Below, in pieces: positions 19,940-36,237 of a stretch of 64,000 bases of DNA. A model generated the notes under the pieces. That model was given only the letters and a program-made list of their open reading frames with translations, had not been told where the DNA came from and did not search any database. Each line of letters opens with the position of its first letter. Positions within the stretch are counted from its first letter, which is position 1. The DNA comes from Escherichia coli (GTDB taxonomy: Bacteria; Pseudomonadota; Gammaproteobacteria; Enterobacterales; Enterobacteriaceae): NCBI RefSeq assembly GCF_003019035.1, contig NZ_CP027447.1, one strand, 5' to 3'. A program made the position numbers and the translations under genes.

Positions 19940-19992
19940 TAGCGTGTCATGGCGGATATTTTTCATCCGCTAATTTGATCGAATAACTAATA

Positions 19993-20020
19993 CGGTTCTC
20001 TGATGAGGACCGTTTTTTTT
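19993..20020 (+). terminator. Rho-independent terminator after carB
   Basis: Stem CGGTTCTC / GAGGACCG followed by eight T. Confidence 0.7.
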
Positions 20021-20199
20021 GCCCATTAAGTAAATCTTTTGGGGAATCGATATTTTTGATGACATAAGCAGGATTTAGCTCACACTTATCGACGGTGAAG
20101 TTGCATACTATCGATATATCCACAATTTTAATATGGCCTTGTTTAATTGCTGCAAAACGAGTCATAGCCAGACTTTTAATTTGTGAAACTGGAGTTCGT

Positions 20200-20595
20200 A
20201 TGTGTGAAGGATATGTTGAAAAACCACTCTACTTGTTAATCGCCGAATGGATGATGGCTGAAAATCGGTGGGTGATAGCAAGAGAGATCTCTATTCATTT
20301 CGATATTGAACACAGCAAGGCGGTTAATACCCTGACTTATATTCTGTCGGAAGTCACAGAAATAAGCTGCGAAGTTAAGATGATCCCTAATAAGCTGGAA
20401 GGGCGGGGATGCCAGTGTCAGCGACTGGTTAAAGTGGTCGATATCGATGAGCAAATTTACGCGCGCCTGCGCAATAACAGCCGGGATAAATTAGTCGGCG
20501 TAAGAAAGACGCCGCGTATTCCTGCCGTTCCGCTCACGGAACTTAACCGCGAGCAGAAGTGGCAGATGATGTTGTCAAAGAGTATGCGTCGTTAA
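20200..20595 (+). CDS. caiF: Transcriptional activator of the cai and fix operons
   Basis: Recognised CaiF N-terminus MCEGYVEKPLYLLIAEWMM begins at ATG 20200 (131 aa); the supplied ORF extends upstream. Confidence 0.88.
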   Translation: MCEGYVEKPLYLLIAEWMMAENRWVIAREISIHFDIEHSKAVNTLTYILSEVTEISCEVKMIPNKLEGRGCQCQRLVKVVDIDEQIYARLRNNSRDKLVGVRKTPRIPAVPLTELNREQKWQMMLSKSMRR

Positions 20596-20625
20596 TGTCG
20601 TTTCGTTGATACCGTGCGACCTGGT

Positions 20626-20710
20626 CGCCGGATGCGATGCTGGCGCATCTTATACGGCTTACGGTTGCTTTCCAGCCAGGTCGGATAAGGCGGTTGCGCC
20701 GCATCCGGCA
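20626..20710. repeat. BIME/REP-like inverted pair
   Basis: Degenerate GCCGGATGCG... unit and inverted ...CGCCGCATCCGGCA unit between caiF and caiE. Confidence 0.45.
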
Positions 20711-20713
20711 TGA

Positions 20714-21304
20714 TCACCGTTTCGGCATCACATCCGTCGTCCCCTGCAAACGGGGACGATTTTCCTCCATTTGCCTCAGTGGTTGTGTTTCATGTAACGA
20801 TGCATGACAGCGCCCGACAAGATCCTGATACTCTTTGGTATTCAACCGTTTCCAGTGTAACTCGTCGTCACTAACACTGCGTACAGCGCGGGCTGGCGTA
20901 CCCATCAACAACTGGCGTTTATCGCCGCGAAAGCCCGCTTTGACAAAGCTCATGGCGGCAACAATGCTCTCTTCGCCAATGACCGCGCCATCCATAATCA
21001 CGCTGTTCATCCCGACCAGTGCATCGCGACCAATCACACAACCATGCAGGATCGCTCCGTGCCCGATATGGCCGTTTTCCCCAACGATGGTGTCAGTGTC
21101 GCAGTAGCCATGCATAATGCAGCCATCCTGAATATTGGCTCCCGCTTGCACGATCAACCGCCCGTAGTCACCACGCAGTGAGGCGAGTGGGCCGATGTAG
21201 ACACCGGCTCCCACAATCACATCGCCAATCAAGACCGCACTGGGATGGACAAACGCCGTCGGGTGAACCACCGGAATTAACCCCTCAAAGGCGTAATAGC
21301 TCAC
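20714..21304 (-). CDS. caiE: Carnitine operon protein CaiE (hexapeptide-repeat transferase-like)
   Basis: Recognised CaiE starts (M)[14 protein letters not shown] at GTG 21304-21302 (196 aa); the supplied ORF starts at GTG 21325 and would overlap caiD. Confidence 0.88.
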
Positions 21305-21309
21305 GGTTG

Positions 21310-22095
21310 TTAACGTCCTTTCCACACCGGATCGCGCTTCTCGGCAAACGCCAGCGGCCCTTCAATGGCATCTTCCGAATGCAGAACCGACGGATAGTGT
21401 TTCAACACGCCGCTGCGAATATAGCGATACGCTTCTTCTACCGGCATTTCGCTGGTGGTGCGGTAGATCTCTTTCAGCGCCGCAATCGCCAGCGGAGCGC
21501 TGTTAACCAGCTGCTGCGCCAGTTCGCGGGCGTTATCCATCAGTTCCGCCTGGCTAACCACGCGGTTGACTATCCCCCAACGCAGCGCCTCTTCTGCGCC
21601 CATTCGTCTGCCGGTCATCACCATTTCATTGACGATGGCAGGCGGCAGGATCTTCGGCAGACGCAGCACGCCGCCGCTGTCAGGAACGATGCCCAGTTTG
21701 GCTTCCGGCAGGGCGAAGCTGGCGTTATCGGCACAGACAATAAAATCTGCCGCCAGTGCCAGTTCAAAGCCGCCGCCAAAGGCATAGCCGTTCACAGCGG
21801 CGATAACTGGTTTGTCGAGATTGAAAATTTCGGTTAATCCCGCAAAACCACCCGGGCCAAAGTCAGCATCCGGTGCTTCGCCTTCTGCTGCCGCTTTTAA
21901 ATCCCAGCCCGCGGAAAAGAATTTCTCTCCGGCACCGGTAATAATGGCGACACGTAATTGCGGATCGTCTCGGAAATTTAGAAATACTTCGCCCATTTCA
22001 AAGCTGGTTTTTGCATCAATAGCATTCGCTTTTGGACGATCAAGGGTAATTTCCAGAATTGATCCATTGCGGGTCAGATGTAATGATTCACTCAT
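21310..22095 (-). CDS. caiD: Carnitinyl-CoA dehydratase (crotonase fold)
   Basis: Recognised CaiD N-terminus [18 protein letters not shown] at ATG 22095 with SD AAGGAA upstream (261 aa); the supplied ORF extends 36 codons further. Confidence 0.88.

Positions 22096-33711: not shown

Positions 33712-36237
<2,526 letters not shown>

Follow-up and report, generated by a model that had tools for sequence, protein, structure and literature searches.

In Escherichia coli, precise RNA 3' ends located directly after stable hairpins arise by one of two routes, i.e. either by intrinsic termination, in which the stem is followed by a U-rich tail, or by Rho-dependent termination and subsequent trimming (Dar & Sorek 2018, PMC6061677). 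Intrinsic terminators carry a U-rich segment of 7-8 nt after the stem, while on the Rho route transcription terminates further downstream and the RNA is then shortened by PNPase and RNase II as far as a protective hairpin, which may also lie within a downstream gene (PMC6061677). Other elements that bear comparison with the site described here are the bidirectional terminators that Providencia, Proteus and Yokenella carry between caiF and caiE, which end transcription between these two convergent genes, and the REP/BIME elements, i.e. stable extragenic palindromes acting as mRNA 3' stabilisers. We describe a hairpin within the 3' coding end of caiE in E. coli, which shares features with each of these systems and differs from each of them.

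The DNA analysed, a stretch of 64,000 nt hereafter called the window, belongs to E. coli and shows 100% identity over 1.3 kb to strain SCU-301, and most other complete E. coli genomes match the locus at 96-98% identity. The local gene order is carB (+), caiF (+), caiE (-), caiD (-) and caiC (-), and the features of the locus are listed in Table 1. The MG1655 counterparts of caiF and caiE lie at 34300-34695 and 34781-35371, respectively, and near the hairpin a window coordinate equals the K-12 coordinate minus 14067. A mechanical list of open reading frames contains longer GTG-start frames for both genes, i.e. 20714-21325 (203 aa) for caiE and 20095-20595 (166 aa) for caiF, where the annotation has 196 and 131 aa. 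The fourth residue from the CaiE C-terminus (window 20726-20728) is Met in the window (DVMPKR) and Thr (DVTPKR) in K-12 and most strains.

Table 1. Features of the caiF-caiE locus, in window coordinates
Feature	Position	Strand	Description
caiF CDS	20200..20595	+	131 aa; PGAP annotation of identical/near-identical E. coli records; translation = CaiF
REP pair, BIME-like	20627..20709	.	inverted pair of REP palindromes (approximate unit limits 20627-20662 and 20680-20709) within the gap 20596-20713; belongs to the caiF 3' UTR
caiE CDS	20714..21304	-	196 aa; PGAP annotation
Hairpin	20738..20758	+	5' arm CGUCCCC 20738-20744, loop UGCAAAC 20745-20751 (7 nt), 3' arm GGGGACG 20752-20758
U-rich tail AUUUUCCU	20759..20766	+	presumed RNA 3' end 20766 (= K-12 34833)
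Candidate rut region for read-through transcripts	20967..21044	+ (antisense to caiE)	C-rich, G-poor stretch; by composition only

A sequence-only reading of this DNA had placed a hairpin followed by a short T-run in the last codons of caiE, about 140 nt past the caiF stop, and all of its statements on the sequence are correct. The letters at 20735-20763 are CGTCGTCCCCTGCAAACGGGGACGATTTT; the hairpin contained therein starts 143 nt downstream of the caiF stop and occupies the caiE codons Thr-Gly-Gln-Leu-Arg-Pro-Arg, i.e. codons -8 to -14 before the stop codon. Its stem consists of seven Watson-Crick pairs, six of them G-C, and can be extended to nine by the pairs 20737-20759 (U-A) and 20736-20760 (G.U). 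The predicted fold energy is -16.2 kcal/mol (RNAfold) compared with -8.7 +/- 2.3 for shuffled sequences (z -3.25), none of 200 shuffles being as stable, and the hairpin folds independently in a 201-nt context. Stem and loop lie within the range of intrinsic terminators (stem of about 5-14 bp, loop of 3-8 nt).

The site thus resembles intrinsic E. coli terminators in its GC-rich stem of 7-9 bp, its short loop, its U-containing tail, a 3' end about 8 nt past the stem and its position downstream of the stop codon on the same strand. It departs from them in having a short, interrupted U tract (AUUUUCCU; the sequence 3' of the stem is A-UUUU-CC-U-CC-AUUU) and no A tract upstream, in its distance from the stop, and in being situated inside a convergent coding sequence, so that its sequence is constrained by CaiE as well. 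With 5 U in 8 nt, the tail scores 3.42, i.e. between canonical sites (4.5-5.4) and coding background, and a consensus terminator scan of the window did not list the site, probably since the stem extension consumes one T of the tail. When perfect 7-bp GC-rich stems followed by at least 4 T within 6 nt were counted, the window yielded 12 overlapping matches, corresponding to eight distinct hairpins; dinucleotide shuffles yielded 0.98 +/- 1.27 matches, so chance alone should produce about one such hairpin per window. By a looser hairpin-plus-tail score the caiE-internal site ranks 42nd of 803 in the window, level with true terminators and with many coding hairpins, so the sequence by itself is not decisive for a terminator. 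The strongest hairpin in the window by scan is a 40-nt near-perfect palindrome, GCTAAGGTTGAAGGGGCGTTCCAGCCCCTTCAACCTTAGC, at 45732-45771 (-), with -33.9 kcal/mol.

Mapping of caiF 3' ends by Term-seq, the check that the sequence-only reading had proposed, is available for K-12, where published data give an end at 34827-34839 assigned to caiF. The 3' end of the caiF-sense RNA is therefore already known from a published table, though the papers searched do not discuss it individually. In detail, the TRS re-analysis (PMC10687069, Supplementary Data 2) of the K-12 term-seq data of Dar & Sorek 2018, which derive from BW25113 grown aerobically in LB (PMC6061677), reports a plus-strand 3' terminus at 34827-34839 with the dominant position 34833, a signal of 0.94 and p = 4e-43, 3e-33 and 4e-34 in three replicates (PMC10687069). 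Since the TRS signal is 1 minus the local read-through (PMC10687069), a value of 0.94 means that few 3' ends lie downstream of 34833. The terminus is classified as 'distant primary' of caiF, a class that is assigned only when no terminus was called <=100 nt from the stop codon (PMC10687069). A further implication of this class is that any caiF terminator curated in EcoCyc 25.5 did not extend to 34833.

Mapped with MG1655 and a K-12-like record, K-12 34833 is the last U in GGGGGCG-A-UUUU-CC-U, 8 nt past the 7-bp stem, and is equivalent to window 20766. The claim that the hairpin terminates caiF while also encoding the CaiE C-terminus gains support from this 3' end 8 nt after the stem, which shows that the hairpin marks the end of caiF-sense RNA in vivo. 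Judging from its position, the RNA ending at 34833 probably originates at the caiF promoter, and the perfect-stem allele of the window should behave like the K-12 allele that was measured. A mapped 3' end is compatible with termination as well as with trimming, and so is no proof that transcription terminates there.

Under aerobic conditions, caiF is weakly expressed. The term-seq support for the caiF terminus comes from one dataset among those examined: among the rows listed, neither the other TRS sheets nor the Adams 2021 tables contain a caiF terminus by gene name or coordinate (for Adams 2021, this includes any coordinate 34830-34835), and rows for caiF or caiE are absent from both the Adams 2021 and the TERMITe supplements. 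Among the papers searched, none discusses a caiF terminator.

For calibration, and to check the coordinates, the 45-nt segment preceding each of the 17 TRS-sheet termini in K-12 1-50 kb was folded. All 17 sit 0-8 nt after a hairpin, and they differ in the number of U in the last 8 nt, i.e. the U-rich termini have 7 (thrL, rpsT), 6 (nhaA, dapB) or 5 (thrC, sokC), with 4 for ispH, and the U-poor termini (talB, mog, dnaJ and the REP at lspA) have 1-2. The caiF terminus, with -15.6 kcal/mol and 5 U in the last 8 nt, groups with the U-rich ones, equalling accepted intrinsic sites such as thrC and sokC. At the canonical carB terminator (K-12 34059-34080, window 19992-20013), which consists of ACGGUUCUCUGAUGAGGACCGU followed by U8, the Dar & Sorek/TRS sheet lists no 3' end, in contrast to the caiF site, which looks weaker. 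This is probably due to the repression of carAB in LB.

Based on these observations, we lean towards the hairpin defining the caiF mRNA 3' end as an intrinsic (Rho-independent) terminator of moderate strength, possibly with Rho as a backup. RNA polymerase would exit caiF, traverse the REP pair of the 3' UTR and then enter the 3' end of caiE in antisense, transcribing the GC-rich inverted repeat and A-UUUU-CC-U. The hairpin of 7-9 bp would form and the transcript would be released about 8 nt past the stem (window 20766), the predicted product being a caiF mRNA with a 3' UTR of 171 nt in the window strain, the last 53 nt of which (20714-20766) would be complementary to the coding end of caiE. 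The terminal hairpin would also shield the RNA from 3'-5' exonucleases. On the caiE strand, ACGGAUGUGAUG comes after the hairpin and there is no U tract, so the hairpin is not a bidirectional terminator. Here it differs from the gap terminators of Providencia, Proteus and Yokenella, being one-directional and intragenic and, in the K-12 allele, carrying a C.A mismatch in the caiE sense.

A weak terminator-like hairpin is also found in the 3' coding end of caiF, i.e. CGGCGU-CUUUCUU-ACGCCG at 20496-20514 (-), followed by ACUAAUUUAU, which is oriented toward cai-operon (caiE-sense) transcripts and, with about -7 kcal/mol and a poor U tract, mirrors the caiE-internal hairpin. The cai operon is presumably silent in aerobic LB. 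No minus-strand 3' end was found at the caiF-internal hairpin in the aerobic LB term-seq data (TRS sheet).

How the RNA 3' end is made is the point at which the readings part. On one alternative the caiE-internal hairpin is only protective, i.e. caiF transcription runs into antisense caiE and stops diffusely downstream, either by Rho or by collision with cai-operon polymerases, and PNPase and RNase II trim the RNA to 20766. We consider this possible but rather doubtful. Trimming to hairpins, including those inside downstream genes, is a general and documented mechanism in E. coli (PMC6061677); the RNA beyond the caiF stop is untranslated, and the imperfect U tract fits such a route, as does the caiE-internal hairpin being the 3'-most stable one, so that trimming would halt there before reaching the REPs. 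Moreover, a candidate Rho-loading site lies 200 nt downstream of the hairpin (20967-21044); its C minus G is +21 per 78 nt, whereas the window averages -1.1 (sd 6.3), a difference of over 3 sd, and by composition this stretch matches the downstream C-rich/G-poor sequence of the Rho-dependent class. The site has in common with the protective 3' stem-loops of Rho-dependent transcripts (PMC6061677) a stable hairpin that sets a precise end, a possible location in a downstream coding sequence and a C-over-G enrichment downstream. However, that class typically shows no U enrichment, and the 5 U in 8 nt of the caiF tail exceed the 1-2 U of the U-poor termini in the same dataset; in addition, the 3' end lies 8 nt after the stem, inside the span of the U-rich segment typical of intrinsic terminators, and the signal of 0.94 argues for few 3' ends downstream. 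The same three features, i.e. distance, U content and signal, speak for intrinsic termination, against which stand the short and interrupted tail, the missing A tract and the absence of a consensus-scan call; we infer that termination at the hairpin, and not trimming, produces the end.

A second alternative is that the caiF transcript is ended or stabilised by the REP/BIME elements instead of the caiE-internal hairpin. The gap contains REP-type sequence (GCCGGATGCG...CGCATCCGGC) that weakly matches naRNA4, an Rfam family derived from REPs, base pairing joins the two units in the 201-nt fold, and these two stable palindromes lie directly downstream of caiF; elsewhere in the same dataset, e.g. 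at lspA, REPs do hold 3' ends. On the other hand, no 3' end was called at the REPs in the K-12 term-seq data (TRS sheet), and the 'distant primary' class requires that there is no terminus within 100 nt of the caiF stop, so the REPs between caiF and the hairpin are not the steady-state end, and the REPs were rejected as the caiF terminator. The gap also varies between strains, from 85 bp in K-12 to 118 bp in the window and 208 bp in N18-04097 and SCPM-O-B-8794, corresponding to one, two or four REP units, while the flanking genes, the hairpin and the T-run are unchanged. Therefore, although the caiF 3' UTR does contain such palindromes, we regard a role of the REPs as the caiF end as highly improbable. 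The hairpin itself, with the mapped 3' end, is intragenic and lacks the REP consensus (GCCGGATG...CATCCGGC type). An Rfam search found nothing centred on it, but only the weak REP-related naRNA4 matches, which end in the gap or in the first codons of caiE, apart from one minus-strand match (E=1.9) that reaches 20738, the first base of the stem.

While termination by the caiE-internal hairpin is thus our preferred reading of how the caiF mRNA ends, the hairpin also has to be considered as protein-coding sequence. Its arms are the caiE codons Arg-Pro-Arg (CGT CCC C..) and (Gln)-Gly-Thr (..G GGG ACG), in which Pro CCN complements Gly GGN and Arg CGN complements Thr ACG, and the T-run is the complement of the Glu-Asn codons (GAA AAT). 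Two of the seven stem pairs are fixed by the protein, and the other five each hang on one synonymous (or Arg-family) position. We compared 35 Enterobacterales loci with convergent caiE and caiF, and the C-terminal motif NRPRL[QKR]GTT[DE]V is kept in all of them (35/35). Considering that the CaiE tail codons supply most of the pairing and the T-run, much of the hairpin follows from this conserved motif. When synonymous codons were resampled in the caiF sense using local codon usage, the protein motif alone gave about -9 +/- 3 kcal/mol. For comparison, the actual sequences give -13.5 to -16.2 kcal/mol in E. coli (p 0.005-0.1) and -15.8 kcal/mol in the Citrobacter freundii complex (p about 0.04), and the excess is not significant in Phytobacter, C. 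amalonaticus, Providencia and most Proteus loci, where one of seven (L031) gave p = 0.02. This points weakly, and in some lineages only, to selection acting on the RNA fold as such. The idea of a deeply conserved or covarying hairpin was rejected, as the peptide motif is conserved across the 35 loci and the pairing register is not.

Within the species, the hairpin is widespread. Among 5,426 complete E. coli genomes, 5,390 of which bear caiE, the perfect-stem allele of the window occurs in 73 genomes. The K-12 allele (GGGGGCG; -15.6 kcal/mol), in which the synonymous change A20756G turns a U-A into a U.G pair, is found in 4,712, and a third allele with an additional synonymous change, C20738T, and hence two G.U pairs (-13.5 kcal/mol), in 515. 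Taken as exact haplotypes, these three (73 + 4712 + 515) place the hairpin and T-run in about 98% of the caiE-bearing genomes. The perfect-stem allele, rare in E. coli (73/5,426), is the one present in E. albertii. Read in the caiF sense, both common polymorphisms keep G.U pairing; read in the caiE sense, they give C.A mismatches and weaken the fold to -10.6 kcal/mol for the K-12 allele and -8.6 kcal/mol for the third allele. Pairing that is kept only in the caiF sense is suggestive; as evidence, however, this asymmetry was rejected, because two transitions preserve pairing by chance with a probability of about 1/4.

The comparison of the 35 loci shows a complementary distribution of the two kinds of element. 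In Escherichia and the C. freundii complex the gap contains only REP-like palindromes without a U tract, and both carry the internal hairpin and U tract, while in Yokenella, Proteus and Providencia the gap holds a canonical terminator, in many cases a bidirectional one, and an internal hairpin with U tract is absent. None of the loci compared has both. The Citrobacter hairpin, CCGUCGUGCCUUUCAGGCGCGGCCGG followed by UUUUCUUC or UUUUUUUC, is formed in another pairing register than that of E. coli, and two Citrobacter species of the REP type lack a stable internal hairpin. Drawn from the genome comparison, this complementary pattern, seen in about six independent clades, would fit the view that the internal hairpin is functional in loci whose gap has no terminator.

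The evidence from coding and from comparison bears on a further alternative, i.e. that hairpin and T-run are a coding by-product which exists only through the CaiE C-terminal peptide and its codon usage, the RNA end being incidental and unselected for caiF. The amino acid-fixed pairs, the dependence of each other pair on a single synonymous or Arg-family position, the stability already reached by synonymous resampling and the origin of the T-run in the Glu-Asn codons all agree with it; so do the chance expectation of about one such hairpin per window, the several genera without a stable hairpin at the caiE end, and the registers of E. coli and Citrobacter, which differ such that no compensatory covariation is demonstrable. 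It has to be set against the reproducible RNA 3' end located exactly at the hairpin, i.e. a molecular effect whatever its origin, against the near fixation of the hairpin in Escherichia and against its distribution, which complements that of the canonical intergenic terminators. We therefore judge a pure by-product to be quite unlikely. At the other extreme, one may imagine a relocation of the terminator, in which REPs occupy the gap in Escherichia and Citrobacter, the place of a canonical bidirectional terminator in other Enterobacterales, and caiF termination moved into the coding end of caiE, where it would have been built from synonymous codons on a conserved, quasi-palindromic peptide motif; we hold this scenario to be unlikely as well.

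The caiE-internal hairpin is an ordinary element of terminator type. Its practical value is small, and it opens no new question. For E. coli it fixes the caiF transcription unit, with a 3' UTR of about 140-260 nt depending on the number of REPs and an end within caiE, and it is a clear case of a single stretch of DNA that encodes protein, here the CaiE tail, and also signals where an RNA of the other strand ends. Recoding or deleting the 3' end of caiE, e.g. in engineering of the carnitine pathway, could unintentionally alter the ends of the caiF mRNA as well as antisense transcription into the cai operon. If the relocation scenario were true, the mRNA of the activator would have an obligatory overlap of about 53 nt with the 3' end of the mRNA of its target operon, and this overlap could couple their stability or expression in a cis-antisense fashion.
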